NCBI GenBank assembly: GCA_965197475.1
Contig: CBDANF010000003.1
Span: 2,848,001-2,912,000, forward strand
Direction of reading: 5' to 3'
From: Candidatus Poribacteria bacterium
Lineage (GTDB): Bacteria; Poribacteria; WGA-4E; WGA-3G
Length of the DNA: 64,000 nucleotides
Both the position numbers and the translations under genes were made by a program. Positions within the stretch are counted from its first letter, which is position 1. The number at the start of each line of letters is the position of its first letter. Under the pieces are notes generated by a model. That model was not told where the DNA came from. It worked only from the letters and a program-made list of their open reading frames with translations, and did not search any database. Shown one piece after another: positions 171 through 22,200 of this stretch.

Positions 171-223
171 TTACAGGTTTTACTATAATAGACATAAGTT
201 GTAACAAACAAAAGGAGCAATAA

Positions 224-1366: not shown

Positions 1367-1557
1367 TTTGGATTCGCTCATTCAGAATATAAAGGAGGAA
1401 TTGGCCCGAGGCATTTAGTTCAACTGACAATTTGTGACTAAAATCTAAAACTAAAACAATGGCACAACTTAAATATACTGTACTGCCACCGGAAATTCGG
1501 GCCGCTCTCTAAGACAAGATTATGGTATAATATCCATCTCCTTGAAAGGAGTATCCG

Positions 1558-1848: not shown

Positions 1849-1853
1849 CCTCG

Positions 1854-2684: not shown

Positions 2685-2761
2685 CTTTGCTAAATTTTGG
2701 TCTGAATAAACGGTAGCACTTCATGTTGAGACTCAGCAAGTCAAGCAAAAGGAGAAAAACA

Positions 2762-3634: not shown

Positions 3635-3734
3635 TATTGATACAGACACTGCGTGATCGAACGACAAACACTCACAAACCATTGTACGAATCAAGGAAAA
3701 AATCAATGAATCGTAAATATCTTGAGGGTATTGC

Positions 3735-4463: not shown

Positions 4464-4610
4464 GGTATCCTCCTGTGAGTAGAAATGAGTTGTTTCAATG
4501 AGGATACAGGTTTTAGGCATATAAGTCAATGAAAATCAGTCTGATTTTTTCATTGACAACTCTCGTTATAAGTCTGATATTTATCAAAATTCTTCATATG
4601 TCAATGTTTA

Positions 4611-5765
4611 TCAATGTTTTCTTGGTATTTGTTCATGAAAATGCTCGCTGAGATCAGACAGCATCTGCCTCTGTCCTGAAAGTTCAAGTTGTCCTTGATG
4701 AAAGGTTTTTCGCACGGAGCGACTGACCTGCTGTATCAAAAGGTAGCTCATCACTTTCACACCTAAGTTCACATACGCGCCATTCCGTCCTTTTAGGCTC
4801 ATGGATGCAAGGTTTAGGTCTGTTTTTAGATACCGCCAATACTGTTCTATACCGTGGTGTTGAGACCATATCCGTAGGATTTCACACGCACGCAGCGGTT
4901 TCCCGAATACGAGCATTGTTCGGACTTTGCCACGGTCTGCAAAGAACAACACCACTACTTTTCCAAAAGTTGGACTTGTGGCTTTAGTCCGATAGACCGG
5001 TTTATCGCACCCCCATTGATTGGAAAGGAGTTGGATCGACTTTTTATGTTCCGAGAGTTTCGCCCTTTTTTCATCAATCGTCATCACATAGTTGCTTTTT
5101 CCGTGCACAAGGATCGTTTCAAATCCCATTTCTCGCAAGGTGTCAATCAAGTGGCGGCTACCATACCACGCATCGAAGGTGATCGGATAGTTTCGGATAT
5201 CTATTCCGGTCCCTTCAAAGAAAGACAAGATTTCCTTGAACATAGTGATGACACAGGAGGGTTTATCCGTATTCCCGCGTCCTTGTTTGCTGATCAGTCG
5301 CATATTCAGGGGAATGATCCGTTTTCCAATCTTTAGGACGATCCCCAATATATTTTGCCCCTTCATCGGCTGTTTTGCTTGAGAAGACCACCAATTGGAT
5401 GTGTAGGCGAGACCCTCTCCATAGCGGAAAAGAAAGGTATCATCCACACTGATGACGATACACAGACGCGATAGAGAAGCAGCACTTTTTGATACTGCCT
5501 CCTGTAGCACCTCTAACGCAATAGAACACCCGATACGCACAAAAAGATGCTGCCAGAGATAAAGACTCATCGTGTTCAGTTCCCGATATAGCCTCGTTTT
5601 CGGAATAGACAACGCATCCGCCACTTGATTCGGGTTAGTGAGCCCAAACAGATGGCAGGTTGACAAAAACACTAAGGTATTAACAAAATGCTGTTTCAAG
5701 GTCTGAAACTGTGAAGATAGAAGTTCTTGAAAAAAAGTGGTAGATTTGATAATCTGAGTTAGCAT
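4611..5765 (-). CDS. DDE transposase (IS4 superfamily)
   Basis: SVDDT, FDAWY, W...IEQYWRYLK motifs; RBS aggagga before MLTQ. Confidence 0.85.
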   Translation of the reverse strand: MLTQIIKSTTFFQELLSSQFQTLKQHFVNTLVFLSTCHLFGLTNPNQVADALSIPKTRLYRELNTMSLYLWQHLFVRIGCSIALEVLQEAVSKSAASLSRLCIVISVDDTFLFRYGEGLAYTSNWWSSQAKQPMKGQNILGIVLKIGKRIIPLNMRLISKQGRGNTDKPSCVITMFKEILSFFEGTGIDIRNYPITFDAWYGSRHLIDTLREMGFETILVHGKSNYVMTIDEKRAKLSEHKKSIQLLSNQWGCDKPVYRTKATSPTFGKVVVLFFADRGKVRTMLVFGKPLRACEILRIWSQHHGIEQYWRYLKTDLNLASMSLKGRNGAYVNLGVKVMSYLLIQQVSRSVRKTFHQGQLELSGQRQMLSDLSEHFHEQIPRKH

Positions 5766-5780
5766 GAGATATCCTCCTAA

Positions 5781-7025
5781 TGTACTGCCACCGGAAATTC
5801 GGGCCACTCTCTAAGACAAGATTATGGTATAATATCCATCTCCTTGAAAGGAGTATCCGATGGCGAAACGAAAACGAAGAAACTTCACCCCCGAGTTTAA
5901 AGCCGAAGTTGTTCTTGAGGCTCTCAGCGTTGAAAGTTCCCAAGCAGAAGTGTGTCGGCGACATAACCTCATCGATGAACAACTTTCAAAGTGGAAGCGA
6001 CAGCTTCTTGAAAAAGCGGCGACCCTCTTTGAACCCGCTGATAAACAGTCTGATGCCTCTGCGGAGCGGATCGCCCAACTTGAGCAACTCGTTGGGCGGT
6101 TGACCTTGGCACTTGACATCCAAAAAAAAGCCTCAACTTACTTGAGTTAGCCTCGATGGAGCAGCGAGAAATGGTTACGGCATTACGGACAGACTTTTCG
6201 GTTCGGCAGATATGTGAGACACTCGGTTTCAACCGAAGCAACCTCTATTATCACTCCAAGCAGGCCCCGTGTGAAGCGGGCCTCCAGGATGAAATAGAGA
6301 CGTTATCTTTGCTATATCCAACATACGGATATAGGCGTCCCACACAGTTGTTGGTGCGTAGCGGATACACCATCGGGTATAAACGTGTTGCCCGATTGAT
6401 GAAGTCCGCCAACCTCTCGGTTTCTGTCAAGCGTGTCTGTCAAACCACGACATCCGTTGCGGGTGTGCGTCCCTGGAGCAATCGCCTTGAAAACCTTGAT
6501 GTCTCCCGATGTAATCAGGTCTGGGTGGGCGATATTACCTACGTCCGCCTCAAAGGACACTTTATCTATGTTTGTCTGCTCATGGATGTCTTCACTCGCA
6601 TGATCAGAGGGTGGCATATCAGTCAACACTTGACGCAATCTCTGACGTTGAAACCCTTGGAGACAGCATTATGTCAAAGTGTCCCAGAGATCCATCATTC
6701 TGATCAAGGCGTTCAATATCTTTCAAATGCGTCCATCTCACTGCTTAGGCATCATGGGATTAAGATTTCAGTCGCCCGGAGAGGGTGTCCTTGGGAGAAC
6801 GGATATGCTGAAAGACTTATCCGCACGCTCAAGGAAGAAGAAGTTCATCTCAATGACTATGAGGACATCCACGAAGCAAGAACCCGCATTGGGCATTTTA
6901 TTACACAAGTGTATAATCACAAACGCCCTCACTCTGCGTTAGGGTATTTGACACCTGTGGAATTTGAGCAAAAAAACTTGTCTTAACTTTGCTAAATTTT
7001 GGTCTGAATAAACGGTAGCACTTCA
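5781..7025 (+). mobile_element. IS3-family element, copy 2, nested in the IS4-like element
   Basis: Same IRs as copy 1; 3-bp TSD TAA; orfA 5860-6150, orfB 6156-6986. Confidence 0.93.
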
Positions 7026-7269
7026 TAATGTTTGTTTATATTCAAATCTGTAATTAGGATGCTATCTCATGCTATAAAAGTCAAGGAAAATGGACACAGC
7101 AAAAACGCATTTTCATGGTGCTATACCTTGTTTCTATTGATTATTATTAGGTTCAAGACTATTCTGAGAAATATCAGTAAGTGTTATCATTACCGCAACT
7201 GAAATATGATGCAGCGCAGTTCAGAGGGTATCCCGCTAATTCTTGCATCATTATTTAACCAATACCCTC

Positions 7270-7590
7270 AAGAAAGATACTTGGTTGTATATGACAGCTA
7301 CCTACGATGGGGTGGATACCTTTAAAATCTATGAAAATGGAACAGAGTTCACTTCAGTCGGTGGTTTCGGCGGTCCTCCGCCCAGGGATACATCGGAAGT
7401 CAACATCGGTGGTTGGACGAACAACACTACAGAAACTCTTAACGGTATGCTCTATGATGTCGCGATTTTCAACGTCGCGCTGTCCGAGGAGGATATAAAC
7501 TCTTTGATGGACAAAGGTATTGCAGGGTTACTGCCAGTTGAGCCTGCTGGTAAACTTGCAACTACATGGGGAACTATCAAATCTCGGTAA
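7270..7590 (+). pseudogene. LamG-like jellyroll protein, 5'-truncated at the IS1 end
   Basis: WLYMTATYDG...IYENG...IGG...GMLYDVAIFNVAL and C-terminal VEPAGKLATTWGTIKSR; no N-terminus. Confidence 0.8.
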
Positions 7591-7611
7591 TATACGCTTC
7601 CTTTTCCAATT

Positions 7612-7639
7612 AGGGCGTAATGTTTTTGTGTTACGCCCT
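7612..7639 (+). terminator. Hairpin after the LamG fragment
   Basis: agggcgtaa...ttacgccct 9-bp stem. Confidence 0.5.
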
Positions 7640-7885
7640 CCCTCCAATCCTTAGTTTCAAATTAGATCATAAAGACATACCAAATCATCCCTTCGAAACC
7701 AACGCTATATTTAAGATGAAAGAAGAACACCGCGTTGAAATCCTATAAGTACATTTCTGATCACCCAATCTGGCTGCACCGCAGAACTTTGTGTCTCTCG
7801 AATCGGTGTGCCAATAGATGTTCCTGCATCATTGTGTGAGATAGCAGATTGACTACACATTCTTTGAAAAACAATCAAATCGTAT

Positions 7886-10122
7886 ATGGAGATGGCTATG
7901 GCAAAATTACCGAACATTTTACTTATTCTCGCTGACGATCACGGGTATGGCGATATCTCGGCGCACGACGGACCGTCAATTCAAACACCACATATTGATA
8001 GGATTGCTGCACAGGGAACGCGTTTTACGCAATTCTATGCGAATTCTTCTGTTTGTTCCCCAAGCCGTGCATCCCTCATGACTGGACGCTATCCTGATAG
8101 AGCGGGTGTCCCCGGGGTGATTCGCACCCATGCACAGAACAACTGGGGTTACTTTCGACAAGACGCTATCACGTTGCCTTCAATGTTAAAACAGAAAGAT
8201 TATCGCACATCGCTCATCGGAAAATGGCATTTGGGGCTTGAAGATGAGAATCACCCGTGCAAACGAGGTTTTGACCATTTTCACGGTTTCCTCGGTGATA
8301 TGATGGACGATTATTACATGCATCTACGACATCAAAATAACTATATGCGGCACGGTTTTGACACGATCGATCCGAGGGGGCACGCCACTGACCTCTTTAC
8401 GGACTGGAGCGTGGACTTTATTCGAACAGGACTTACGCAGTTTTGAAGATTATTGAAGGATTAGAGAGTTGATGTCGTCCGTAATCATCCAATAAACTTT
8501 GTTTGAGTTCGTAAATCGTTTGAGTGATTTTCCGGGCAGCACGCTTCAAGCAGACCCAGACCTGGAAACAACACGCAATATGGTTTCGTTGGGCACGCAG
8601 TTTGCGGCATTGACATTTGTCAATACCGGTTAATTGTTTGATTTCACGATGAAGTTGCTCAATCTTCCAGCGAACCCGACACTGTTGTTTTGTCGCTTTC
8701 GCATCCGATTGAGATAAATCGTTTGTCACAATATATTCCGTGCGTCCTGTATCAGACACAATCCGGAACAACTTCACTTGATACCCTTTTGGAAACCTTT
8801 TGATATGCACGCGTTTGCCTTGTGTCGTTTCTGATGGAGACCAAGATAAATCTTTTTACTTGCTGGTGCGGTTCAACACCATCCGTATCATTTACAAGCC
8901 TGTTTCGTTTCAGGGGCGCATAGTAGACCTTGGAAAGTGCCGCAATCGCTTTCATTACTTTCATGGATACATACCAAGCATCCATTAGCACTGTCCGAAA
9001 CGAGAGTTGTTTCTTGAAGTAAGCATCGTGCAACATATCAAGTAAATGATCAATTTTGGATTTACCATCAGGGTCTTTGTCAAAAATGCGGTAATCAATG
9101 ATCCAATACTCGTGTGTCTTTGGGTTAACATAGACACACGTGACAATACCGATGCCTTCAATGACCTTTTTGTCGCTACCACTCCATTGAGGGTAGGCAG
9201 CTTCAATCAGTTTTGAATATATTTTTGACAGCACAACATCGTCAAAGATAAGGTATCCATCTTTATCAAACGCAATGTCGTCTTTGACAGATTCCCAGAG
9301 TTCGCTTGAAGGAATGTTTTCGTTTCTCAGGAAACGATTGAGTTGATCATGGCTCCACTTCTCCGTATGGTTTGCAAAATAGGTTTGTGTAAAATTAGTG
9401 AAACTCGCTAACAAAAATTGACAATAATCAGAAAATAAGTGGTGCTTCTTTTTAGAAAGTGTAAATGTAGTCATAATAGAACAGTATAACATAATTGTAG
9501 ATTATTGCGTAAGTCCTGTCGAACTCACGCACATACATCTCATCCTTTTTTCCTCTATCTTGCATATAACGCACCGCATACACCAATTCAACCGCCTGAA
9601 GATTGGATCGAACGCGTGAGGGAACGTGAACTGGACATTTCACCCCAGCGTGCCAAATACGTGGCACTCGTTGAGCACATGGATGCGGGTATCGGAAGGG
9701 TACTTGATACGCTTGAGGAAACTGATCAGCTTTCCAATACGCTTGTAATCTACACATCAGATAATGGAGGAGCGATGCAGGTCGGTGCACATAACGGTCC
9801 GCTACGCGGGCAAAAAGGTGAGATGTACGAAGGCGGGATCCGAGTGCCTACGTGTGCTATGTGGCAAGGGCAGATACCAGAAGGACATGTTACGGATCAG
9901 GTAGCGATGCTTATGGATATCTTTCCAACGCTATGCGAGGTAGTTGATGTTCCTATCAAACACGAAATTGAGGGACGTTCAATTTGGCAAACGCTTCAAG
10001 GCGAAGAACAGGATTTCTCCGAACGCCTCCTTTATTGGTTGCGGAGAGAGGGAGGACAACAGTTTCACGGTCAGTGTCAACATGCCATTCGGCGTGGCGA
10101 TATAAAGTTACGCAATGAGTAG
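7886..10122 (+). pseudogene. Sulfatase split by IS701 and 3'-truncated
   Basis: LADDHGYGD, CSPSRASLMTGRYP, GKWHLG, then after the IS PFFLYLAYNAPH, SDNG, YEGGIRVP; stops just before the IS1595 gene. Confidence 0.9.
8427..9518 (-). mobile_element. IS701-family element with frameshifted transposase (9492..8433)
   Basis: TIR CAGGACTTACGCA at both ends; 5-bp TSD TCGAA; FDD, DAWY, RWKIEQLHREIKQ split over two frames. Confidence 0.9.
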
Positions 10123-10227
10123 TTTTGGACTTGAGAAAAATTTTAAAAAATCGCTATAAAGCCTTGTGTCCACTGGGTTTATATGGTATAATATAGATAA
10201 GAAAATAGGGGGTTGGTAGCCCCCTAA

Positions 10228-11211
10228 ATGAACACAAAAAGCGAGTTGCTTTTTGACGGTTCTAATCTTATCTGGTATTATATCAGAAATCCGTCAGAAA
10301 AAGCAACTCCTATTTCAAGGAGTTATCTGATGGATTTGTTGAAGGTGATGGAGCGTTTTCCCGATCAAGAGAGTTGTATTTCGCATTTAGAGAAGATTCG
10401 GTGGCGAGGTAAACCTGTGTGTCCGCATTGTGAAAGCGATCATATAGGAGAACGGACAGAAACAGAAATCGGTCGTATCGGTCGTTGGAACTGCCACGAG
10501 TGCCAAGTGAGTTTCAAGGTGACGTGCAGGTCGGTGTTTCACGGGACAAAGATAGCGTTACAGAAGTGGTTTTTGGCTATTTCGTTGATAACGAATGCGA
10601 AGAAAAGTTTGTCAAGTCATCAACTTGCGCGCGATTTAGACTTGAATCAAAAGACAGCATGGTATATCATGACTCGTATCCGTGCTGAAATGGCAAAGAA
10701 AGGTAACGTGCTACTACAAGGCATCATAGAGGCAGATGAAACTTACATCGGGGGTAAACCTCGTAAGCCTAATAAGAAGGAAGACCACGTGCCTGCCAAG
10801 CGTGGACGTGGAACAGAGAAAGACGCTATTATCGGGGCAGTACAGCGGGGCGGGAAAGTTGTAGCACAACTCGCTAAAGATTTGACAGGACGGACTATTT
10901 TAGACTTTATCCGAAGAGTCGTCAAAGTTGAGGATTCGGAGTTGATGACCGATGAGTATAAGGCGTATCTCGCTATCGGCAAGGAGATGAAACACCATAT
11001 CATAGATCATCAAACGCAATTTGTTGAGGGTGATGTCCACACAAACACAATTGAGGGGTTTTGGAGTCTACTCAAACGAGCTTGGTATGGAAGTCATCAC
11101 CACTACTGGACTGAATATACGCCCCTGTATGTAGCAGAGGCGTGCTATAAATACAACTATAGGAGCATTGACAGTATCTTTGATAAGTTTGTTAATGAAA
11201 GTATGCGGTGA
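10228..11211 (+). mobile_element. IS1595-family transposase (true start may be ~10330)
   Basis: CPHC...CHEC Zn ribbon, IEADETYIGG, TDEY, HTNTIEGFWSLLKR; element ends not identified. Confidence 0.9.
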
Positions 11212-11220
11212 TGGACACAA

Positions 11221-11493
11221 CTAAAGGTATGCCTTATCAATCTTGTTCTTTTTGTCATCAGGATTTGAGGGAAAATGCTGTGGAAGTTCAAAAGTTGGCT
11301 TTCCATCTTTCAGAGCATCGATCATGTCAAGAGCAAATTCCAACCTCTCATTGTCCGTGTCAAAAGGTTTCTGAATCACTACGCGAAAATTTGTATCAAG
11401 TTTTACAAGGGCGAGTTCTACAAAACTCTCTGTATGTAAGGCTAAAAGTGAAAAATCAACAGGATCGGAAGGCGGCTTGAATATTACCCACAT
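11221..11493 (-). CDS. Hypothetical protein (possible IS1595 passenger)
   Basis: 90-aa ORF with RBS aaggag. Confidence 0.5.
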   Translation of the reverse strand: MWVIFKPPSDPVDFSLLALHTESFVELALVKLDTNFRVVIQKPFDTDNERLEFALDMIDALKDGKPTFELPQHFPSNPDDKKNKIDKAYL

Positions 11494-11549
11494 GGGTTTA
11501 GTCTCCTTTGGGGTTAGAGGGGACAGAGTCCCCTCGTTGGTTGGAATTG

Positions 11550-12063
11550 CTAATACCCGTATGGAGAATCAGCAGCTGAAATTAAAATTATCCAAAGTCC
11601 CACCATAGTGCCAGTTCCAATAACACATCCTATTGTAGCATGTGTTATTTGGTCGTTTTTCACAAGTTTTTGATAAATGCTTGTGTAATAAGCAACCTGA
11701 TATTTCTCAAAAGCACTCAGAAATCAGTATCTATCTATGGTCTCTCAATACGCGGTTATGAAAATGCTAAAAAATACTAATTGATAAACCTCCATTATGT
11801 GAAAAAAGCACTTTATTTTCAATACAAAATAGAATAAATTGTCCATTAAATGGGTTTTTTATTGGTGTGACAACATACGCAATTAACATACCGGTAACAC
11901 CAAGTAGACAACCAACAGTTCCCCATATTTGAGTGTTTGCAAGTGTTGCATCACGTCGTGCATCAAATATTGCTTGCGCAGCATCACTTGTTTGTTGTGC
12001 AAGTGTGAGATATGGCGTAGTGAATAACATCACAACCATTATAAACGACAAAGTTTTCATCAA
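11550..12063 (-). pseudogene. Exported membrane protein interrupted by an IS-end remnant
   Basis: N-part ...GMLIAYVVTP ends ~11863; C-part VAYYTSIYQK...GCVIG...SPYGY* resumes at 11696; the insert begins with CTGATATTTCTCAAAA, the same IR type as 4574-7177. Confidence 0.6.
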
Positions 12064-12130
12064 TGTTCCTTTTGTGAGGTAAAATGTGTATGTAGGGGAT
12101 CAAAAGACCCCCTACATGTTTGCAAGCGGA

Positions 12131-12262
12131 TTATTTACACCGCTTGTGAGGTTTGACAGTTTCTTTCACCGTTGTGGCGGGACGGCGTTTGTCCGTGCCT
12201 TTGGGAAGGAACCGTCCGTCTTTGGCATCGCGTACACGCGTGCCAGTGGCTTTTTTAGCCAT
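12131..12262 (-). CDS. Small basic protein (43 aa, RDAKDGRF motif)
   Basis: MAKKATGTRVRDAKDGRFLP...RRPATTVKETV; RBS gaggt; downstream hairpin tgtaggggat...ccccctaca. Confidence 0.6.
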   Translation of the reverse strand: MAKKATGTRVRDAKDGRFLPKGTDKRRPATTVKETVKPHKRCK

Positions 12263-12850
12263 AGTATACCTCACTTTGCTTGAGATAAATTGGTGCATAG
12301 CGTATTTCCAGTGCGTTATGCACTGTTCAAGCATATAAAATTGATACGTTAAACGGGTATCGTTCGTAGGTTCGTTTACACCTTTCTATGGGTGAGGGCA
12401 GGACACAACACAAGGAGTGTTGCGATAGAAATCCTGCCCAACGAACTTGAGAATAGTATAACATGGAAAGAATTTGAGTGTCAAGTGAAAAATTTGAGAA
12501 AAAATTTCAAGTCCAAAACTACTCATTGCGTATATTTTTATATATGTTATTGTGAACACATGAAAAAGACTAAGCAACGGGTTTTCCCTCATTTTACGAC
12601 AGAAGTTCTTACGCTTCCAACGACAATTCGGAAATCTTTATCTTTGGCATAGGATCGCTTTCTAAGTACTCACTCATCCATCTGCCTATCCGTTCTTCAC
12701 GACTCGTTTTTCGATTGGCATGAATATACTCAAGGTAATGAGTCGATCACTTGAGGCAAAAAATCATCATGAGTAAGGCCTTGGAGCAATGCGTGGAATT
12801 CGCTACGGACATATCAGCAAGTTTTTCACAAGATTCACCGTTCATGTGTT

Positions 12851-13000
12851 TTGACATACTCCCCCAGCTAAAGCAAGGGGGATTCTTCTAAAAGAGAATC
12901 CCTTGCTTTCAGGTGCGGATTGTGGGTTTCCGACTTCGGTTGAAGTCTGCGAGGGTTGCTTGTGATCGCAAGTCTGATACCCTCTAATCCAAAGGTTAAT
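12851..13000 (-). ncRNA. Predicted TnpB omega/reRNA scaffold overlapping the tnpB 3' end (5' boundary uncertain)
   Basis: Hairpins gacttc..gaagtc and agcaagggattct..agaatcccccttgct running to the TCAA right end; family knowledge. Confidence 0.6.
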
Positions 13001-14073
13001 GCCCCAACCTTTACTATGTTTATAGCAGCATTCACGTCTCTGTGGTGATTAGTTGGACAACGATTACAAGTCCATTGACGTATAGACAAGTCCATTAGCA
13101 TTTGCTGTTGTCCGCAGGTGCTACAGTTTTTAGAAGTCGCTTCAAACCTATCAATATGATAGATTTCTTTACCATGTTTTGTGGCTTGGTGTTTCAACTT
13201 CAGGTGGAATGCATAGGGCGCAATATCAGAGACTTTACGCCCCCATAGACGCTTCATGCCTTCAAAGGTAAGCGTTTCAAAGCAGAGTGCGTCATATTTA
13301 TGGACAAACTGCTTGGCAAGTTTCCAATGGTGGTCGTCTCGTTTACGCCTGATTTTACGGTGAACACGTGCAGCGTCTTTTCGTGAACGCTCACGATTAT
13401 TGCTACCTTTAACTTTGCGTGAATGTTTGCGTTGTGCTTTCGTCAGTGCTGCCATAGAAGTTTTATAGAATTCAGGGGATGCGTAGAGTGTGCCGTCAGA
13501 ACAGGTGAACATTGTCTTCATACCGAAGTCAAACCCTGCAGCATGACCCGTCTTAGGTAGGACTTCGGAAACAGTGGGGTCTGACACGACAGACATATAG
13601 AAATCACCGAGACTATCTTCCTTTATCGTGATCGTTTTGATATTACCGAGTATAGGACGGCTAAGATTAAAACGATAGTATTTATCCTGTATCCGAACCT
13701 TATCACCATAGAAACCATAACCAGAGGGTGACAGAGTGAACGAATATGGCTTTCGCCATGAACGGAACTTAGGTGGACGCTTGGCAATACCGTCAAAGAA
13801 ACGCTTATGGTTTCCTATATGCAACCTTTTCAGTATCTGCCGGGCTGCCCACGAATCTAACTCACGCCAATGGGCAAACACTTCAGGGTGTGCCGGACGC
13901 AATATAGTGAACTGCCGAGACATTTCGTTATAGGACATATACGGCAGTCCAAGAGCGTAGCGAGCCCGTTGCCAGCCTAAAAAGTAGTTCCATATATCGT
14001 GTGCTATCCACGTTAATCGCTTCAAATTACGATTACGTCTCGCACGAAAAAGTTTGTCCAATGTGCTATACAT
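12868..14073 (-). CDS. tnpB: RNA-guided endonuclease TnpB
   Basis: RuvC triad appears intact (GFDFG, CFETL, RDVNAAINI); CSTC/CNRC Zn finger; PPKFRS. Confidence 0.93.
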   Translation of the reverse strand: MYSTLDKLFRARRNRNLKRLTWIAHDIWNYFLGWQRARYALGLPYMSYNEMSRQFTILRPAHPEVFAHWRELDSWAARQILKRLHIGNHKRFFDGIAKRPPKFRSWRKPYSFTLSPSGYGFYGDKVRIQDKYYRFNLSRPILGNIKTITIKEDSLGDFYMSVVSDPTVSEVLPKTGHAAGFDFGMKTMFTCSDGTLYASPEFYKTSMAALTKAQRKHSRKVKGSNNRERSRKDAARVHRKIRRKRDDHHWKLAKQFVHKYDALCFETLTFEGMKRLWGRKVSDIAPYAFHLKLKHQATKHGKEIYHIDRFEATSKNCSTCGQQQMLMDLSIRQWTCNRCPTNHHRDVNAAINIVKVGALTFGLEGIRLAITSNPRRLQPKSETHNPHLKARDSLLEESPLL

Positions 14074-14082
14074 GGTATATCA

Positions 14083-14167
14083 AGTATCAAGTTTTTAACC
14101 CCTAATGAGTGAGTAGGCAGACACGTAACCTTGCGATTACGCTCATTATGTCTGCCAACTTGATACT
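14083..14167 (-). ncRNA. Structured 5' leader RNA of tnpB (three stems plus possible pseudoknot), copy 1
   Basis: AGUAUCAAGUU/AACUUGAUACU, GGCAGACA/UGUCUGCC, CGUAAUC-GCAA-GGUUACG, UAAUGAG/CUCAUUA. Confidence 0.6.
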
Positions 14168-14170
14168 CTA

Positions 14171-14199
14171 ATTATACTACATTTTAGACCGAAAATCAA
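14171..14199 (-). promoter_or_regulatory. sigma70-type promoter of tnpB
   Basis: TTGATT-17 bp-TATAAT on the minus strand. Confidence 0.7.
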
Positions 14200-14895
14200 A
14201 CCTTTTTCTACAAATGTTTGGTCTAATTAACGAGGGCGAGACTGTATCCCCGCCTTAAAAGGCGAGGTTTTAGTCTCGGAGGTTTTGATAAAAGAGGGAC
14301 AATTTTGGAGGATTCTTTATCGCATATTTCACGCGTGCACAGGCTTGGCAGCGGCACCGCATTTTTCAGAGAGGGGTTTTCGGTAGATAGACAACGTCTA
14401 AAATAGGGACGGAAAGTTTTTTTACATCACGATACCCGATTCCTATTTTCGTTTTCATGTAAAATACAGAAAAAGTTGTCAGATCAAATCACCTAACCGT
14501 ATGGGTTTATCCAATGTGTCAAAATTCACACATAAAACAGTTATACAACGCTATTAGTGAGATTTTGGATACCGAATTCTGCGTGTTTGATAAAATATCA
14601 ATACCAAAAGAAATAATACTCAAAACGCCCAACCATAGTGCTTTCCCGTAATCAAGAAACTTCTGATTTCAATGTAAGCGTTTCGGTGTCAACAGCAGTG
14701 ACTTTCACCAGTTTCAATCTCGTAATCGAGTAACTTCTGATTTCAATATTGAGCAGATTATCAATCCTCCGCCTGAATATGTGAAGTTTCAATCTCGTAA
14801 TCGAGTAACTTCTGATTTCAATATGAACATCATGACGACACAGACACAATCAATTGCTATGATGTTTCAATCTCGTAATCGAGTAACTTCTGATT

Positions 14896-15180
14896 TCAAT
14901 TCATCATGGAGTGGTCGTAAGTATGCTCGGCAGCCTGGATAATCTGATGGATATATGGATAGTCTTCAGCGATTTCGCTATACCAGCCGTCTTTGACATC
15001 TTCGTCTGTCCAGATGTCCTTGAATTCTGCGCCTTCTGCGGGTGAGCCGATGGGGGCTTTGTATTGTTTCTTTGTGTTGAAAGGTGGATCAAGGTATATG
15101 AGATCCACCGTTTCGGAGTTCATGCCACGCATGATGTTAAGGTTGTCGGCGATGAAGAGGGTGCGGTTTTGGAGGTTCAT
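14896..15180 (-). pseudogene. Site-specific DNA methyltransferase N-terminus, truncated at a CRISPR repeat
   Basis: RTLFIADNL...VDLIYLDPPFN (N4/N6 MTase); the stop codon is supplied by the repeat at 14896-14898. Confidence 0.85.
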
Positions 15181-15190
15181 ATCATAAATA

Positions 15191-15457
15191 TTACGACAGT
15201 ATCTTAATATCTAAAAGTTCAAATCCTATACCTTCAGAACTTATATCAACAGTCACTGGTATAGGTTTCATTGAAGGAAGAACATCTTCTATAAGTTTCT
15301 CATTTCTTGTATAAAGCATTAACTGATGTTCCGCATCATTCTTAGGAGGGAAAAAGCGAAAAAAAAGACCGAAAAGAGGACCCGTATTTGTATTATATTG
15401 GTAAACATCAGTTATGGATCCTGTTAATGTACCTCTATTTGGATATATAAAAGACAT
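15191..15457 (-). CDS. Hypothetical protein inside the array insert
   Basis: 88-aa ORF with RBS aaggag. Confidence 0.6.
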   Translation of the reverse strand: MSFIYPNRGTLTGSITDVYQYNTNTGPLFGLFFRFFPPKNDAEHQLMLYTRNEKLIEDVLPSMKPIPVTVDISSEGIGFELLDIKILS

Positions 15458-15521
15458 CTATTTCTCCTTATTGAAGGTTGTCGGCTATGAAGAGGGTGCG
15501 GTTAGGGATTTGTTGGTTCAT

Positions 15522-15983
15522 TTATCGCCATGTTTGAAGTCTTTTATCAAAATTATTAGCTTCTGCTATACACCAAGCAGGTAAGTCGTCTTTAGACCAA
15601 TGAGCGGGGCTTAGTTCGACAGAGTAAACTGGTATACCAGGTGCGACAAAATCATAAATTGCAAAATAAAACTTAGGCACACGTCGTTGTAAAGATGAAG
15701 CAATTGAAACCCATTGGTCTTTTGTGCCATCTTTGAATTTAATACCAAGAACAGTCACAAAAATACGCCATTCCCAATCATCGTTTTTACCAACAATGAC
15801 AACATCGCCTAATGCGCGTAGTTCTCGCTTAAGATGGCTTTCAATTATAATTTGTTCAGTTTTATCTTCTTTTTTTGCATGGACATACACATACACCTTG
15901 AATGTCTTAGGTTCAGGAGCGTAGGCGTTGCCTATGAATACAGCGGAGAGTAGAAGGATTGTGAGTACTAATGATCGTTTCAT
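15522..15983 (-). CDS. Hypothetical exported protein inside the array insert
   Basis: Signal peptide MKRSLVLTILLLSAVFIGNAYA; RBS aaggtga. Confidence 0.7.
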   Translation of the reverse strand: MKRSLVLTILLLSAVFIGNAYAPEPKTFKVYVYVHAKKEDKTEQIIIESHLKRELRALGDVVIVGKNDDWEWRIFVTVLGIKFKDGTKDQWVSIASSLQRRVPKFYFAIYDFVAPGIPVYSVELSPAHWSKDDLPAWCIAEANNFDKRLQTWR

Positions 15984-16060
15984 GGATCACCTTTTATGAA
16001 GAGGGTGCGGTTAGGAATTTGCAGAGGCATAGGAGAAGTTTACATTGTGTGTTATGGTCA

Positions 16061-16444
16061 TTATTTTTCAAAGTTGCTATCTGAGGACACTGGAATACGA
16101 GTACCAATAACACCGTATCCATCATATCCTTCGATCGGTTTTGACTCACCATCCTTTTCAGAACGAAGATCGTATATTTGCTTGCCAGATCTAATTGCAC
16201 TGATTATCTTTTCAAATAAAATCAGACAATCATCTTTACTATGAAAGCCTGCAAAAATATAATAAGTCTCAGAATCATTTGAGAATTTGCCATCATGGAA
16301 TTTTTGAACACCTAAACAGTATGCATCTTTATCGTTAGACTCTTTTACTTTATAAACAACGATTGAGTCATGATTATTTATATTGATAGCAAGAGTATCA
16401 ATAAATTCATTTCTTGTATAAGAATGTTCCAATATTATTAACAT
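16061..16444 (-). CDS. Hypothetical protein inside the array insert
   Basis: 127-aa AT-rich ORF with RBS gaggtga. Confidence 0.65.
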   Translation of the reverse strand: MLIILEHSYTRNEFIDTLAININNHDSIVVYKVKESNDKDAYCLGVQKFHDGKFSNDSETYYIFAGFHSKDDCLILFEKIISAIRSGKQIYDLRSEKDGESKPIEGYDGYGVIGTRIPVSSDSNFEK

Positions 16445-16515
16445 GCTAATTCACCTCTTACAGAATTAAATATATTGCATTAAAGCATTAACAAAATAGT
16501 TAATCCACTTAAATT

Positions 16516-16748
16516 ATGCCAACACCACAAGATGTTATCTGGGAAAGGGATTTAATACCTTACATACATGTCACACTGCTGGGTGAGGACATCACAGCCG
16601 ATTTGCTTTCAGAAAACAATCAAGGTATTGAGGGTATAGAACTGACGCTTGATTATCCGCAACTGAACGTTTTCAAAGCATCGAACATTATCCTTACACT
16701 TGCGAACGATGATGGACGTTTCTCACCTGATAACACCAGCAACTTTTT
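16516..16748 (+). pseudogene. 5' fragment of a possible phage structural/tail-type gene, cut by a CRISPR repeat
   Basis: Protein-like up to ...LTLANDDGRFSPDNTSNF, after which the ORF runs through the repeat and tnpB antisense; phage origin is an inference. Confidence 0.5.
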
Positions 16749-16785
16749 GTTTCAATCTCGTAATCGAGAAACTTTTGATTCCAAC

Positions 16786-17045
16786 TTACGTCTCGCACGA
16801 AAAAGTTTGTCCAATGTGCTATACATGGTATATCAAGTATCAAGTTTTTAACCCCTAATGAGTGGGTAGGCAGACACGTAACCTTGCGATTACGCTCATT
16901 ATGTCTGCCAACTTGATACTCTAATTATACTACATTTTAGACCGAAAATCAAACCTTTTTCTACAAATGTTTGGTCTAATTAACGAGAGCGAGACTGTAT
17001 CCCCGCCTTAAAAGGCGGGGATACAGTCTCGGAGGTTTTGATAAA
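16786..17045 (-). mobile_element. Second, truncated copy of the tnpB element left end (target TTTAT, hairpin, promoter, leader RNA, first 41 nt of tnpB)
   Basis: 260-bp near-identical direct repeat of 14033-14292; abuts the repeat at 16785. Confidence 0.92.
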
Positions 17046-17345
17046 TACAACATATCCTAATACAATCCATCAGTGAGATCAATGTTTTTAGAATATTAAT
17101 GAATATTTACTATTTCTTCAAACAATTGGATAAAAGAGTCGGAACCACGTCACTAATCGGTTGAGAACAATCAGGGATTCTAACCTAACGCATTGGATAA
17201 CGGTTAACACATGCGCGTTTCAGAGATCGCAGTTCCGACCCACCTAAGGAGGCATATTTAGTAATCCGCAATTTCTATGCCAACGGAAAAGGGTGGCATT
17301 CGGTGGAGCGTGCCCTGCTACTTTTAAGGACACACTTCATCTATT

Positions 17346-18251
17346 TTAATTTGAATCCGAAAGTTCTTCTCCAACAATTAGCCGATATGCCTCTCGGTAT
17401 TTCTCGCTCGTTTTAGTAATCACAGTGTCCGGTAACTCAGGTGCTGGCGGTTGCTTGTTCCATCCGATCTCAGAAAGATAATCCCGAACAAACTGCTTGT
17501 CAAAACTTTGTTGTGGCTTTCCGGGTTCATATAAAGCGGCGGGCCAAAACCTTGAGGAATCAGGTGTAAACACTTCATCAATCAAGATCAATTCACCCTC
17601 TCGTTCACCGAATTCAAATTTTGTGTCACATAGGATGATACCTGAGTTTTCGGCATGCCTACTTGCCACCTTGAATAGCGCGAAACTGATATCAATTAGT
17701 CGATCGGTCAGATCAGTACCAACCTGATCACGCATTTGGTCAATAGATATTGGTTCGTCATGCTCACCTTGCTCTGCTTTGGTAGTCGGGGTGAATAGAA
17801 GTTCAGGTAGCCGATCCGACTCGCGTAGTCCCGCGGGTAGTTTTTGTCCGCATATTTCTCCTATTTTCTGATACGAAGCCCACCCCGAACCAGCAAGGTA
17901 ACTCCGCACAACACATTCAATATCAACGCGCTTAGCTTTCTTGACAAGCATTGAACGTCCATTTAAAAGGTCAGCATCAGCATGTAATGTGTCGGGATAC
18001 TCTTCGACTTCTGTTGAAATAAGATGGTTTTCTACGACAGATTTGGTGTAATTGAACCAGAATTTTGACAATCCGGTTAAAACTCTGCCTTTATCTGGAA
18101 TACCGTTCGGCAAGACAACATCAAAGGCAGAAATCCGATCAGTAGACACAATCAGAAATTCATCACCGAGATCGTAGAGATCGCGGACTTTACCACGATG
18201 TGCAGGACTTAAGTTTGTTAATTGTGTAGACGTAATAGTTTTTTGAGGCAT
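17346..18251 (-). CDS. purC: SAICAR synthase
   Basis: GKVRDLY, TDRISAFD, DTKFEFG, DEVFTPDSSRFW, SFDKQFVRD. Confidence 0.96.
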   Translation of the reverse strand: MPQKTITSTQLTNLSPAHRGKVRDLYDLGDEFLIVSTDRISAFDVVLPNGIPDKGRVLTGLSKFWFNYTKSVVENHLISTEVEEYPDTLHADADLLNGRSMLVKKAKRVDIECVVRSYLAGSGWASYQKIGEICGQKLPAGLRESDRLPELLFTPTTKAEQGEHDEPISIDQMRDQVGTDLTDRLIDISFALFKVASRHAENSGIILCDTKFEFGEREGELILIDEVFTPDSSRFWPAALYEPGKPQQSFDKQFVRDYLSEIGWNKQPPAPELPDTVITKTSEKYREAYRLIVGEELSDSN

Positions 18252-18453
18252 ATTTCTCTCCTAAAAAATTTCTTAAGTATCACATTACTCTTTTAGCAGA
18301 TTTTGAAGCACAACTACAGTCTTTACCACGATGTGCAGGACTTAAGTTTGTTAATTGTGTAGACGTAATAGTTTTTTGAGGCATATTTCTCTCCTAAAAA
18401 ATTTCTTAAGTATCACATTACTCTTTTAGCAGATTTTGAAGCACAACTACAGT
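18188..18453. repeat. Perfect 133-bp tandem duplication
   Basis: 18188-18320 equals 18321-18453. Confidence 0.92.
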
Positions 18454-19062
18454 TCTATTTTTCGCATCAATTTTTAGCACTTTCTCAATCTCTTGTTTTG
18501 CATGCTGATTTTTACCGAGATAGTAGTAGCACGCTGCCTTAAGTGCATGAAGTTCTGCTTCAGAGTGATAATCGTGCCGATACAAGTATTGTGCATCAGC
18601 CTGCAATGCGTTATCTATTGCACGGATTGCCGATTCAAAATCGGAATTATCTTTATATCGTAAGTATAGCACATTCGCTAAACCAACCCAAGCGTCCCCG
18701 TTAGATGGATCAAATCGCACAGCATTTTGGAAACCTTCTTGTGCAAGGGAAAGAGAGAGCCCAAGACTTAGATTACTCCAACCGACTCCGTTGTGTGCAT
18801 CACCAAATTCAGGATCAGTGTTGAGGGCGCGTTCAAAACTCAATAAAGCTTGGGTATAATTGCCTGAATAATAAGAACGCCATCCTTGCTGAGTATGATT
18901 TAAAGCGGTTGACGCTCCATTGTCAGAATCACTTGAACAACCAACTTGTATTAAAAGTGAGAATATAAGAAAAAAGATGGACAGAACGATATAAATTTGG
19001 CGCGTCATGTATGCTTTACTAAAGTTTGGACAATTTCTGTCTGTTTCATGTTGTGTTCTCAA
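18418..19062 (-). CDS. TPR lipoprotein
   Basis: Hydrophobic leader plus VGC; TPR pattern (ALNTDPEFGDAHNGVG); true start probably MTRQ. Confidence 0.8.
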   Translation of the reverse strand: MRTQHETDRNCPNFSKAYMTRQIYIVLSIFFLIFSLLIQVGCSSDSDNGASTALNHTQQGWRSYYSGNYTQALLSFERALNTDPEFGDAHNGVGWSNLSLGLSLSLAQEGFQNAVRFDPSNGDAWVGLANVLYLRYKDNSDFESAIRAIDNALQADAQYLYRHDYHSEAELHALKAACYYYLGKNQHAKQEIEKVLKIDAKNRTVVVLQNLLKE

Positions 19063-19284
19063 GTCCTTTCTATTTTTCTACGAGTTTTGTGCAAAGTTGT
19101 AACTCACAGAAAAACTATTATAGGTTCAGCAAAGGCAGCCCCAGCGGGGCGAAATGTTTATCAATAAATCTTATATTGATGTCTGAGGTGTTTCTATTGA
19201 TCTTGACTATCACTCAAGAACTCTAAAAATTGTCCAAAGTATAGTATGCTTTAAAGATCAAAAGTAAACTTGCTAATCTCATGT

Positions 19285-22200
19285 CTATTCCGATTTCAGA
19301 GTTGATAATAACGGACTTCTGAGTGCAAACGAAACAGCAATTGCATTTGCAATTATACCAAAACCGAAGATGAATAACAAGGTAATCGTTAAGGATAGCC
19401 ATGGGAAAGCGGGTAGATGCCCTTGTGAGCCGAGAATCGCAACTAATCCCGCTACGACACCGATTAGCATTCCTACAGCAAGAAGAAAGCAGCTTTCAAG
19501 AAACAACATTCGTGACAGCAATTCTCGACGAAAACCGAATGCCCGAAGTGTTGCTAATTCTCCGTGACGTTCCATAATATTTCTTAATAAAACTAATGCT
19601 AAACCGAATGTACCCAGTAGTACTCCCAAACCTCCAAGGCTCTGAAAAGTAGAGATGTAGGTGTTTTGAACTGCGCGAAAACTTGCCAACCGTTCCGATG
19701 CAGATGTAACATCAAAGCCGTAGTCCCCTAATGTTTTTTCAAGTATTTGCGATGTTCCTTCCCGCAATTCAGGTGGTGTTTTAATCAGAAAAAATTGATA
19801 CCCGCTTTGACTTGGGAAGTATTTCGTAAAATCGGATTCCGAGATGATAAGTTGACTCTGGAAAAGACTATTTTCTATCGTATCAATACTTAAACGCAGC
19901 GGTTTTCCAAATTCATCTTGGATCAGAAAATCTTCCTTTGGGTTATGATGCAAAATCCACTGTAGTGAATTTTGATCACCGATAGCAGGAATTTTACCTT
20001 CGTCAAAGTTCGATAGCTTTAAATTTTCCCAAGGTTTTCCATTTAGTATAGCATCTGATGCACCCAATATCTGCGGTTTCTTTGGTTGGTAGAGATTTAG
20101 ACAACTGACATCTTCCCCTGGTAGAACGCGAAACGGGTATACAACCGATTTAGATAGCACTTCAGAATCTTTGTCAGAAAAACCGAGTTCTAATCTTCCT
20201 TCAGAAGTATTTAGACTATGATGCAAGGATATAGATGATTCAGCGACAAAAGCGTATTCAGTCTCTGGTAGAGCTTCTTGCCTATTTGCCCCTACTGCCA
20301 CGATAATACAGCATGCTAAACTGATAGTCGTAACACATGTATTGCTTCGCGCTGGCTGTCGCGCAGCGTTTTTAATGGCAAAATGCATTCTACTCAGTCG
20401 TTTTGACACCTTCTGTGAACTTAACCACTTTGCAAAAATTGTCCAACCCAAGGAAAGGATTGTGATTGTGAATATTAAGAATTTTACCACTGGATGCTCA
20501 AAAAATGTAACTGTGTCAGAGATTCTTCTTCCAAAAGTAAAATAAGCTATTAATACACCAGTAACGAGTCCAATACAGAAGAAAATAGAACTCATTTTGA
20601 TGTTTTTGGGGGTAAGGTTAGGGTTTGTTCCATCGTCTTTTCGGCTTGCTAAACGGATGCCAAATAGGCCGCAAGCTGCCAGTATGATAACAATAATAAT
20701 CCCACTCCAATCTCCAGTAAAGAGCCTTCCATTGTCCATGGTGCCGAAAAAGAGACCTACGAAAAAAACTGAAATCCTTGCTGTGCTAATTTTTGACACA
20801 ATAACACTCTTTGCTTTCTGTTTTGAATTTGCCTCGCCAAAATCAGTTTGCCCAGCAAGAAGTGATACGGTAGAAATCTTTCCCAATTTTCCGACAGTCG
20901 TACGGATAGAGAACATCACAACGGCAAGTGAAATGAGCACCCCTGCAAGTAAACTCCAGACACTAACGTGAAGTTTCAAAAACGCTGTTCCGATAGCGGG
21001 TAGCCACCACGTTTGTAACCCAAATATCATCAGCTGTGCATATCCAATAGCGAGTAAACATCCTAATAAACTACCGAGACCAGAAATGATACCGCCTTCT
21101 AAAAGGAAACTGCGGCGGATTTTGGCAAGCGGATAACCTACTGCTTGTAGAATTCCGATCTCACGCGATCTTTGCTCTACGCCAATACGGAACACCATGC
21201 CAACCAGAAGCGCGACAGCAATGATAATAAATCCACTCATGCTGCTAAATAACATCCCGAAATCTGATGACCCTTTTGCGGATTGAAGTCCTTCTGTCCG
21301 GAGTGATAAAAATTGGAATCCAATCTGTTCTGGATCAATTTCTTTGAGGAATTCAGTTTCAAAAAGTGATCTAGTCGTGCTAATATTCTGATCGGGTACT
21401 TTACCCATCCGAATTGTGGTGAGATCACCGAATCGGTTTTGCCAAAGATTCTTGCCAGTATTCAACGAGATAAATGCTTTTGCAGCAGCCTGATAATCAT
21501 CCCAATATTCCTCGTCCTTAGAACGAATAAGGGAATTATCAAATGGAAAAGGTGGATCCCATTCAAACATATCAGTTGTATCATTTATGCCGGGAAAATT
21601 GGGAATTAAGTCTGTATCCGCAGCGATGTCCTCAATAGGAACAATGCCTTTTAATAGAAACTGTGTTGTTTCTGTAACGTACTCTTCTTCTGCGCTGACA
21701 CTATAGTAGGTAACCTCGATTTTATCCCCGACTTTCGCGCCGAGATCGTCCGCTGCCCATCTATTGAGGTAAATTTCAGAATGTTCAGTAGATGGATTGA
21801 GTGCTTTTAATTTGCTTTCTGCTGCACGCAGTTCCTCTTCAGTCGTGTATCTACTAAGTAGGTCTGCAAATTCTCCTTTTTCAACAGGAAGTGCTAAGAT
21901 TGTTGAATATGGAACTTTTTTGGGAGCAATACTTGACTCTTCTTGCGATGGGGCAATAATTGATATTGTATTTGCAAGGTATGTGAGGGTGGGGAGCGTC
22001 GAAATACCATTCTCAGATGCCACCTGTAACGCTGCTTCAGATAATACCGGTTCTATAAGATACTGCTGACTTTGCAGGTCGAAATGGTTCTCATGCTCAT
22101 TAATGCTTAAACCGAGTCCATCTAAGCTTAACATGAGAGATTCCGGTAAGATTGGCTCAGTTTCCGTTGTAAACAGAGCGTTTACTTTACCTGTTTGTGC

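Follow-up and report, generated by a model that had tools for sequence, protein, structure and literature searches.

A cas-less type I-G CRISPR remnant beside a single tnpB insertion element and a broken second left end in a Candidatus Poribacteria genome

In the genome of a Candidatus Poribacteria bacterium, the decayed remnant of a type I-G CRISPR array, devoid of cas genes, adjoins a single tnpB insertion sequence (IS) and the broken left end of a second copy. The locus lies in a 64-kb stretch of DNA that was analysed as a whole (hereafter the window, on which all coordinates are given), and it is probably rearrangement debris in a variable region adjoining an IS-rich one. A sequence-only reading of the same DNA had described the anatomy of the locus; when coordinates, repeats, and duplication were remeasured, this description was correct to within one base (Table 1).

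Organization of the locus

The first part of the window (1-12530) holds six transposase genes of five families: IS3 (two copies), IS1, IS1595, a DDE_Tnp_1 gene, and a DDE_5 gene, the last of which is flanked by the two parts of a split sulfatase gene. Positions 11000-12530 are a multi-copy element. Synteny with six relatives stops at purC (~17113-17346), and the ancestral arrangement is not reconstructable from the nearest available genomes because they are only ~83% identical in purC.

Table 1. Features of the locus in descending window coordinates; G003, G012, and G020 are other genomes
Feature	Position	Strand	Remarks
TTTAT target/TAM motif, 5' of outer truncated left end	17041..17045	-	TTTAT/CAA common to both window copies and the G003 and G020 elements
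Outer left-end copy	16827..17040	-	Palindrome 17031-16990; promoter-like TTGATT-17-TATAAT 16952-16924; structured 5'UTR ~16916-16840
Truncated tnpB, first 41 nt	16786..16826	-	Frame enters R1 and stops there; 24-codon frame by reading of the sequence
R1, solitary variant repeat	16749..16785	-	Sequence identical to the type I-G repeat of G020 (44 copies, next to cas genes)
5' fragment of a gene without assigned family	16519..16733	+	77% nt identity to G012; homology ends 15 nt from R1
ORF, 127 aa, no family	16061..16444	-	Genome encodes six paralogues at 35% identity
ORF, 153 aa, no family	15522..15983	-	Preceded by methyltransferase 5'-end remnant 16017-15983
ORF, 88 aa, no family	15191..15457	-	Preceded by second methyltransferase 5'-end remnant 15508-15474
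Type II DNA methyltransferase 5' fragment, 93 codons	14901..15180	-	Cut exactly at first base of R2
Mini-array R2-S1-R3-S2-R4-S3-R5	14637..14900	-	R2-R4 identical (37 nt each); S1-S3 of 41, 38, and 37 nt; R5, at the end, degenerate
Trailer, 344 bp	14293..14636	-	No match in relatives examined; unitig covers 14263-14739
TTTAT motif, 5' of intact element	14288..14292	-	TTTAT/CAA, as at the outer copy
Intact non-autonomous IS200/IS605-family element	12851..14287	-	Left end, promoter, structured 5'UTR, tnpB, right end
Putative guide-RNA (omega/right-end RNA) scaffold	12851..13040	-	Overlaps tnpB 3' end
Flank, would-be guide of right-end RNA	12835..12850	-	Variable region starts here; putative function

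The intact element carries an imperfect hairpin (14278-14237), a promoter (14199-14171), a structured 5'UTR (14163-14087), and a tnpB ORF (12868-14073, minus strand) whose 401-aa product scores 80.2 bits against OrfB_IS605 and 64.3 bits against Cas12f1-like_TNB, above the curated cut-offs. The protein aligns over its full length with ISDra2 TnpB (E 2.6e-33), with which it shares the RuvC acidic triad and the CxxC...CxxC zinc finger; its GfDfG, cfEtL, and hRDvNAA motifs align to the matching ISDra2 motifs (8h1j), at what we take to be the catalytic positions. The left boundary, TTTAT/CAA, and the right boundary, ...GTCAA(A), the latter ambiguous by one base (12850/12851), agree with those of 92%-identical elements in G003 and G020. 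TTTAT/CAA was found at the related loci L084 and L089, TTTAC-like and TTAT-like motifs at L086 and L090, and L091 was not placeable; insertion is 3' of a conserved motif, with defined ends and no target duplication. At the other extremity, 9 of 9 sequences share a highly conserved right end as far as ...GTATGTCAA, past which they are unrelated; such a sharp boundary would be expected for a putative guide RNA of the element's own. The predicted fold of this region has z = -3.19, with 0 of 51 predicted pairs covarying; the structured 5'UTR shows strong covariation and gave no match to an Rfam family.

The element resembles ISDra2-type tnpB elements in its TnpB domains, catalytic motifs, lack of tnpA, insertion 3' of a motif, subterminal hairpins, and conserved right end that breaks off abruptly at the expected start of the guide, but differs in its structured 5'UTR and in being single-copy in its genome. 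One full copy and one truncated left end are present; in relatives the element is multi-copy, with at least 45 matches in some. TnpB, if active at all, would be a homing nuclease of the usual guide-RNA kind, acting for its own element.

The broken second copy forms part of a 260-nt duplication on the minus strand (14033-14292 and 16786-17045; 98% identity, 6 differences), comprising TTTAT, left end, promoter, structured 5'UTR, and the first 41 nt of tnpB, the ATG of which lies at 14073 in the intact and at 16826 in the truncated copy. That the two left ends have identical promoter hexamers was borne out, TTGATT-17-TATAAT being present in each, and array and tnpB may, as predicted, both be driven by a left-end promoter. 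The outer hairpin is a perfect palindrome with 20-bp arms and, because the inner copy and the relative L089 retain an internal loop, is derived and perhaps not a TnpA substrate. Between R1 and R2, the 1,848-bp interval is a non-CRISPR patchwork of gene fragments and small ORFs, and a local ORF (16516-16851) reads across R1 into the left end.

Origin of the repeats

The repeats lie on the minus strand, as does tnpB, in the orientation that the sequence-only reading had given them. R2 (14900-14864), R3 (14822-14786), and R4 (14747-14711) are identical in sequence, R1 (16785-16749) differs from R2 at 4 positions, and R5 (14673-14637) is degenerate, with 8 mismatches; regular repeat-spacer units are present, with a spacing of 74-78 nt and unique spacers. 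No further repeat copies or other CRISPR-like arrays were found in the genome. By sequence, the repeats belong to a type I-G system of the genus: repeats of this family occur in genuine type I-G loci of three relatives from the genus. In G050, 98 repeats with 3 mismatches to R2 lie directly downstream of Cas4g/Cas1g, Cas6, and Cas3'; in G020, cas4/cas1 is followed by a leader of ~500 nt and then by the 44 repeats identical to R1; and G003 carries this cas4/cas1 gene as well, with an array whose last repeat is R1-type.

The leader is 80.6% conserved between G020 and G050 and has no match in the genome under study, in line with the earlier claim that the native leader was lost. The lack of cas genes, first noted for the 64 kb, extends to the whole assembly (5.70 Mb, 3 contigs, 92.7% complete) as far as the tested families go: nothing matched Cas1, Cas2, RAMP, or Cas6_C, or, by tblastn, any of the 10 ORFs of the G050 type I-G cas region. 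The array thus shares with those of G050, G020, and G003 its 37-nt repeats of one family ending in ATTGAAAC, its spacers of 37-41 nt, and a degenerate trailer-end repeat, but has neither cas genes nor a leader in the genome and consists of only 5 repeats, split by 1.85 kb of unrelated DNA. CRISPR arrays without cas genes are termed orphan arrays. The present one is likewise short, lacks cas genes and a leader, and ends in a degenerate repeat; it differs in that a transposon left end, bearing a near-consensus promoter, takes the place of its leader. Here too the earlier description held, as the 16785/16786 join is flush with the exact leader/first-repeat boundary seen in G020 and G050.

Alternative explanations

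Mis-assembly at the duplication, against which the sequence-only reading had cautioned, is highly improbable as the source of this arrangement. Differences at 6 positions distinguish the copies, the assembly consists of just 3 contigs, and in the runs of two samples unitigs (0-1 differences) connect the variant hairpin arm of the inner copy with the trailer and the start of the outer copy with its own flank. Specifically, the intervals 12700-12957, 14263-14739, and 16507-16775 are covered in the public runs by unitigs that show 0 differences, and 17025-17200 by one that shows a single difference; among the public-run contigs listed, however, none reaches across 16785/16786 or contains the whole of either copy, so that the join at 16785/16786 is known from the assembly alone. 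What weighs against debris is that the genome's only tnpB homologue and only CRISPR repeats lie inside one 4.2-kb left-end-to-right-end stretch, a co-location that would be coincidental if decay alone were at work, unless the whole piece came in at once. Exact joins of two truncated genes to repeat 5' ends, at 16785/16786 and 14900/14901, would also be rare under random deletion (roughly (3/75)^2 for two flush joins, by a post hoc estimate). The co-location would be explained if the outer left end and the right end bound an element comprising array remnants, small ORFs, and tnpB that was moved, or is movable, by a Y1 TnpA acting in trans. TTTAT precedes both left-end copies, and an excerpt of 10.1101/2023.03.14.532601 states that excision requires intact left and right ends and that TnpA can act in trans on elements without tnpA. 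The genome, moreover, carries one Y1_Tnp gene (G000:C3:1868465-1868800), the search having returned one match at 124 bits and one weak match. Yet the region around this gene shares no sequence or ends with the element and has no ORF of at least 130 aa beside it, the outer palindrome may be no substrate, and the unit is single-copy, with no match to its flanks elsewhere and no second copy in the genome. No empty site was found in the relatives examined, which are too distant for that test, and a search for the same arrangement, as proposed earlier, gave 0 matches to the tnpB41/R1 junction in metagenome_contigs and in genome_contigs, where records of this or a very near genome were possibly left out. 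The proposed mobile composite therefore gained no positive support and is quite unlikely; that the 4.2 kb arrived as one piece, a mobilisable composite of tnpB, three cargo ORFs, and type I-G units behind a transposon promoter, is very improbable. The flush joins, for their part, could be the work of the type I-G integrase (Cas4/Cas1-Cas2), before loss of the cas genes or in a donor genome, and such an origin would be compatible with debris. Repeat 5' ends would have received long DNA ends, with the 1,848-bp stretch then in the position of a giant spacer and the tnpB fragment on the leader side. The leader-repeat boundary is where Cas1-Cas2 joins 3'-OH ends; both junctions fall exactly at the first repeat base, and at most 15 nt on the 3' side of R1 are unassigned. 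This origin is nonetheless unlikely: R1 and R2 differ at 4 positions when a repeat duplicated on integration should be identical, and the case is single, with no second example. Arrays of G020 contain mixed repeat variants, and recombination between arrays is an alternative.

The sequence-only reading had further suggested an early TnpB-CRISPR association, TranC-like or type V, in which repeat-spacer RNA from the left-end promoter would guide TnpB. The repeat-then-spacer polarity does match a scaffold-then-guide order, the array lies on the tnpB strand, the promoter hexamers are shared, and tnpB is single-copy in the genome. An excerpt of PMC10691335, in addition, presents insertion of tnpB near a pre-existing array as a possible route to Cas12 that is not ruled out. 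The same excerpt, however, places the array downstream of the nuclease gene in conserved Cas12-array associations, whereas here it is upstream. The repeats are, moreover, type I-G, and the right-end RNA region is intact. The 401-aa protein, full-length to ISDra2 TnpB, matches PDB entries named LaTranC in its C-terminal half only (E 1.9e-22). In local alignments of the repeat with the tnpB element, scores of 9-10 compare with shuffle means of 9.6-10.1 in either orientation, and 189-277 of 300 shuffles scored as well, leaving no signal of similarity or of an anti-repeat. Neither the repeat core nor any array was found at the 11 related loci with 70-92% identical TnpB. The locus is like TranC and early type V systems in having a TnpB-size nuclease close to a CRISPR array, and unlike them in its upstream array, lack of an anti-repeat, and repeat unrelated to the right-end RNA; in those systems, according to the review PMC13565253 (citing Jin et al. 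2025), the function of the guide RNA is divided between a tracrRNA and a crRNA. An early association of this kind is not upheld, and use of the array by TnpB is extremely improbable.

Proposed history and implications

Under the preferred reading of the locus as debris, a type I-G CRISPR locus would have lost its cas genes and leader, leaving two leftovers, a solitary R1-type repeat and an R2-type mini-array with three spacers and a degenerate repeat at its end, between which gene fragments and small ORFs now take up 1.85 kb. A non-autonomous IS200/IS605-family tnpB element would have entered 3' of TTTAT, 344 bp past the array, and a second copy 3' of another TTTAT upstream; a later rearrangement joining this second copy to R1 would have truncated it 41 nt into tnpB. 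The order of these rearrangements is one that we infer. Transcription from the outer promoter may extend into R1 and past it, and repeat-spacer RNA made without Cas6 or an effector would have no known user.

Were the composite or the crRNA reading true, the locus would record an encounter, seldom caught in nature, between TnpB and a foreign array. A composite would provide a solitary TnpB with a constitutively transcribed supply of repeat-spacer RNA, which would be raw material for the route to Cas12, left open in the literature, that starts from a transposon inserting beside an array already in place. A systematic survey of exact joins between unrelated genes and repeat 5' ends would be worthwhile, and their recurrence, if found, would indicate integrase-mediated rearrangements at CRISPR repeats. 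As it stands, the locus cautions that an array adjoining a tnpB gene is not evidence for a TnpB-CRISPR system, and it offers an example of CRISPR locus decay and scrambling in transposon-rich symbiont genomes.

Architecture of the locus and support for its assembly

The feature is real, and the anatomy put forward by the sequence-only reading proved accurate when the minus strand was read through 12500–17400 and a repeat finder was applied. Five CRISPR repeats (R1–R5), with spacers of 41, 38 and 37 nt (S1–S3), lie between two copies of the left end of a tnpB element; R1 stands 1,848 bp from R2, and a trailer of 344 bp separates R5 from the TTTAT of the inner left end. This locus is probably an orphan remnant of a type I-G system, scrambled by rearrangement, whose neighbours are a non-autonomous tnpB element of the ordinary kind and a second, truncated left end.

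The repeat finder aligned the two left-end copies at 98% identity over 260 nt, with six differences, four of which fall in a hairpin arm of the inner copy. Both begin with TTTAT, after which come a hairpin-forming palindrome, a promoter close to consensus (TTGATT-17-TATAAT) and a 5'UTR, and both reach their 3' limit 41 nt inside tnpB, where the inner copy runs on into a complete gene for a 401-aa TnpB and the outer copy abuts R1 at 16785/16786. The stretch is present in public runs labelled as sponge metagenome. Unitigs from public runs tie the variant arm of the inner copy to the trailer and array (14263–14739, with 0 and 1 differences in two samples), the beginning of the outer copy to the sequence that flanks it (17025–17200) and the unknown-gene fragment to R1 (16507–16775); no piece covering the join at 16785/16786 appeared among the matches listed. 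Two joints with sides of 22–28 letters, 14899>16747/16749 and 14103>16861, were considered as deletion variants and rejected, and are ascribed to repeat similarity and the 260-nt duplication.

Features of the locus and its surroundings (window coordinates; the R1–R2 contents are listed in minus-strand order)
Feature	Position	Strand	Remark
R1	16785–16749	minus	
R2, R3, R4	14900–14864, 14822–14786, 14747–14711	minus	identical
R5	14673–14637	minus	degenerate
Inner left-end copy	14033–14292		
Outer left-end copy	16786–17045		
tnpB	12868–14073		intact
Left-end hairpin, inner	14237–14278		
Left-end hairpin, outer	16990–17031		
tnpB 5'UTR, two copies	14087–14163, 16840–16916	minus	
R1–R2, 15 nt			unassigned
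R1–R2, unknown gene, 5' part		opposite	homology to related genome G012 stops at 16733
R1–R2, three small ORFs			
R1–R2, type II DNA methyltransferase, 5' part			first 93 codons; homology to related genome G006 stops at 14901, flush with R2
Methyltransferase 5'-end remnants (NRTLFIADNL)	15139–15173, 15474–15508, 15983–16017		tandem orientation; repeat family D4
Non-coding block	17132–17295		
purC ORF	17346–18251	minus	
Tandem duplication	18188–18453		
Multi-copy element	11000–12530		
Transposases	within 1–11211		IS3 (two copies), IS1, DDE_Tnp_1, DDE_5, IS1595
Sulfatase halves	7886–8446, 9505–10122		DDE_5 gene between them

A type I-G origin for the repeats

The window repeats belong to the type I-G system of the genus and are unrelated to tnpB. 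In the related genome G050, 98 repeats with three mismatches to R2 stand directly 3' of ORFs matching Cas4g/Cas1g (618 bits), Cas6 and Cas3', and in another relative, G020, cas4/cas1 is followed by a leader of ~500 nt and then by 44 repeats identical to R1. The same cas4/cas1 gene is found in G003, together with an array whose last repeat is R1-type. That the window array reads on the minus strand is confirmed by the way the cas genes are oriented, by the leader and by the degenerate terminal repeat, and the 5' end of R1 is the exact counterpart of the leader–repeat junction in these relatives.

The genome that carries the window (5.70 Mb in 3 contigs, 92.7% complete) yielded no match to the Cas1, Cas2, RAMP and Cas6_C profiles, no tblastn match to ten ORFs taken from the cas region of G050, no counterpart of the leader, which G020 and G050 share at 80.6% conservation, and no copy of the repeat elsewhere. 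A crude k-mer array finder run on this genome reported 44 periodic clusters and no other CRISPR-like array among them; 12 were inspected, four by reading the sequence (perfect tandem or coding repeats) and eight by the longest exact repeat and its spacing, and the remaining 31, the window's own array apart, were judged by period and whole-period identity (0.50–0.78). Searches of the same genome with S1–S3 and the 38 nt after R1 returned only self-hits and chance matches of 14–18 nt.

The tnpB element and its predicted RNAs

TnpB carries OrfB_IS605 and Cas12f1-like_TNB domains and aligns over its full length with ISDra2 TnpB (8h1j; E 2.6e-33), retaining the acidic motifs of RuvC and the cysteines of the zinc finger, whereas its match to chains named LaTranC is confined to its C-terminal half. 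PADLOC Cas12f and Cas12u models also hit the protein; these hits reflect the homology that TnpB and Cas12 proteins generally share in their RuvC half and do not speak for a type V effector. Elements of 92% identity occur once in G020 and twice in G003, and alignment with them showed the element ends proposed earlier to be correct to within one base: in all aligned copies the left boundary falls between TTTAT and CAA and the right boundary directly after ...GTATGTCAA(A). The own genome holds a single copy of the element, apart from the truncated left end, and no second TnpB homologue; in some relatives the matches number up to at least 45.

Eleven loci encoding TnpB at 70–92% identity were drawn from records titled Candidatus Poribacteria MAGs, and eight of these were aligned with the window at the right end. 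Some 190 nt are highly conserved in all nine sequences, which become unrelated directly past GTATGTCAA, a sharp boundary of the kind that would be expected of a guide-RNA scaffold followed by its guide. The RNA fold of this region is better than that of shuffled sequences (z = -3.19), and 0 of 51 pairs covary, as there is hardly any variation in it.

The tnpB 5'UTR is a conserved structured RNA common to many tnpB subfamilies of the genus (loci L048–L077). Across 24 distinct copies, pairing is kept through two-sided changes in 16 of the 24 predicted pairs. Immediately before the start codon stand two tandem copies of the outer stem's 3' strand; by our own reading of the alignment, both of these copies change along with the 5' strand, a hint at alternative pairings through which translation might be controlled. 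An Rfam search of 11000–19000 in E-value mode found nothing on the 5'UTR or the right end; three matches in this interval (SraB, sot0042 and HgcC) fell far below their gathering scores and were treated as chance.

Proposed association with TnpB, composite mobility and transcription

The sequence-only reading had gone on to suggest an early TnpB–CRISPR association. That the TnpB uses crRNA appears extremely improbable, and several observations speak against a nascent association. Neither similarity nor a complementary anti-repeat relates the repeat to the element above shuffled controls, and neither the repeat core nor any array was found in the 11 related TnpB loci (0/11; the flanks covered reached 6 kb on either side, contig permitting). 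The window array lies upstream of tnpB, whereas conserved Cas12–array associations have the array downstream (PMC10691335). The element also appears to retain its own right-end RNA region. In TranC systems, according to a review, the key step is that the guide RNA is functionally divided into a tracrRNA and a crRNA (PMC13565253); the window locus bears no sign of such a split.

It had also been suggested that the outer left end and the right end form a composite unit able to mobilise array, cargo and tnpB together. The idea is legitimate in principle, since excision requires that both the left and the right end be intact and TnpA can work in trans (10.1101/2023.03.14.532601), and it would neatly explain why the only tnpB and the only repeats of the genome share one left-end-to-right-end stretch. 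Positive evidence was not found, however, and we regard composite mobilisation as unlikely. The putative unit is single-copy in its own genome, and in collections from which records of the own and very near genomes are possibly absent, the pattern of the join at 16785/16786 had 0 matches in metagenome_contigs and in genome_contigs and the left-flank pattern had 0 in metagenome_contigs. Only one Y1 TnpA gene is clear, and it has neither a tnpB-sized ORF alongside nor end sequences in common with the element. In the outer hairpin, the 20-bp arms form a perfect palindrome; the inner one has four clustered mismatches in one arm, matching the 80%-related element L089. As the resulting internal loop (TAAAAC arm) is common to the inner copy and L089, the outer left end is the derived version, its perfect palindrome looking secondarily 'corrected'.

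The further proposal of identical promoters in the two left-end copies holds for the sequence. The -10 hexamers end at 16924 in the outer copy and 14171 in the inner one, and transcripts would be predicted to start a few nt downstream of these; discrete repeat-spacer species would not be expected in the absence of Cas6. Two RNA libraries (X4 and X5) contain 0-difference contigs on parts of the cargo (15480–16291 and 16541–16725), which may come from either strand or from DNA carry-over; coverage is zero over 14361–14813 in both and next to none over 14814–14964, a gap that speaks neither for nor against transcription into the array.

A variable neighbourhood and the flush joins

None of the three small ORFs between R1 and R2 matched a family. 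A different small ORF follows each of the two upstream methyltransferase remnants. The pattern looks as if the starts of methyltransferase genes had repeatedly been replaced or had taken up insertions, and the methyltransferase N-terminus occurs at at least 15 further loci in the own genome. Contigs joining 16012 to 16470 without the 127-aa ORF region reach a depth of 3.3 in public run X1 and 18.9 in X3; together with the uneven depth of the unique parts of the locus in X3 (~11 to 84), they suggest strain variants.

Synteny with six relatives (G020, G003, G024, G005, G053 and G044) ends at purC or the conserved non-coding block (~17113–17346) and is not resumed in the window; from these six, neither an ancestral arrangement nor an empty one was recoverable. 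No open frame, of the kind that a gene split by the insertion might have left, crosses the boundaries 12850, 14293 or 17046. The block, which many genomes of the genus share at 81–84% conservation, adjoins purC in four relatives and lies elsewhere in others; it has no Rfam match, and a tRNA gene was rejected, a tRNA/tmRNA scan of 10000–20000 being empty. In the tandem duplication, two 133-bp copies of 100% identity overlap both the start of the purC ORF and the region upstream. Downstream of the unit, the multi-copy element has further copies, 100% identical, in several parts of the genome. The first 12.5 kb is crowded with transposase genes, next to which the locus occupies a variable region.

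The truncated tnpB and the truncated methyltransferase, which are unrelated, each meet the exact first base of a repeat. Such exact joins would rarely arise from random deletions, and it is a reasonable guess that the adaptation integrase of the type I-G system made them, or that they came about by recombination involving repeat-bearing DNA. The four positions that distinguish R1 from R2 speak against one integration event. A second array in G020 (locus L033, G020:C1:5353000-5372999, 9959–10600) consists of nine repeats in three blocks of three, each with its own variant and the final three R1-type; such mixed-variant arrays indicate recombination between arrays in the genus. Within the same public runs, repeats of the R1 type reach a summed depth of ~13,500 (X1) and 82,000 (X3) per bin and are joined to dozens of different spacers, at least 12 of which (31–39 nt) stand at ~1,300–1,400 depth each in X3 among the matches listed. 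Given this very high depth and the dozens of spacers, an abundant co-resident organism therefore carries a large, active R1-type array, and horizontally acquired fragments would have a donor at hand.
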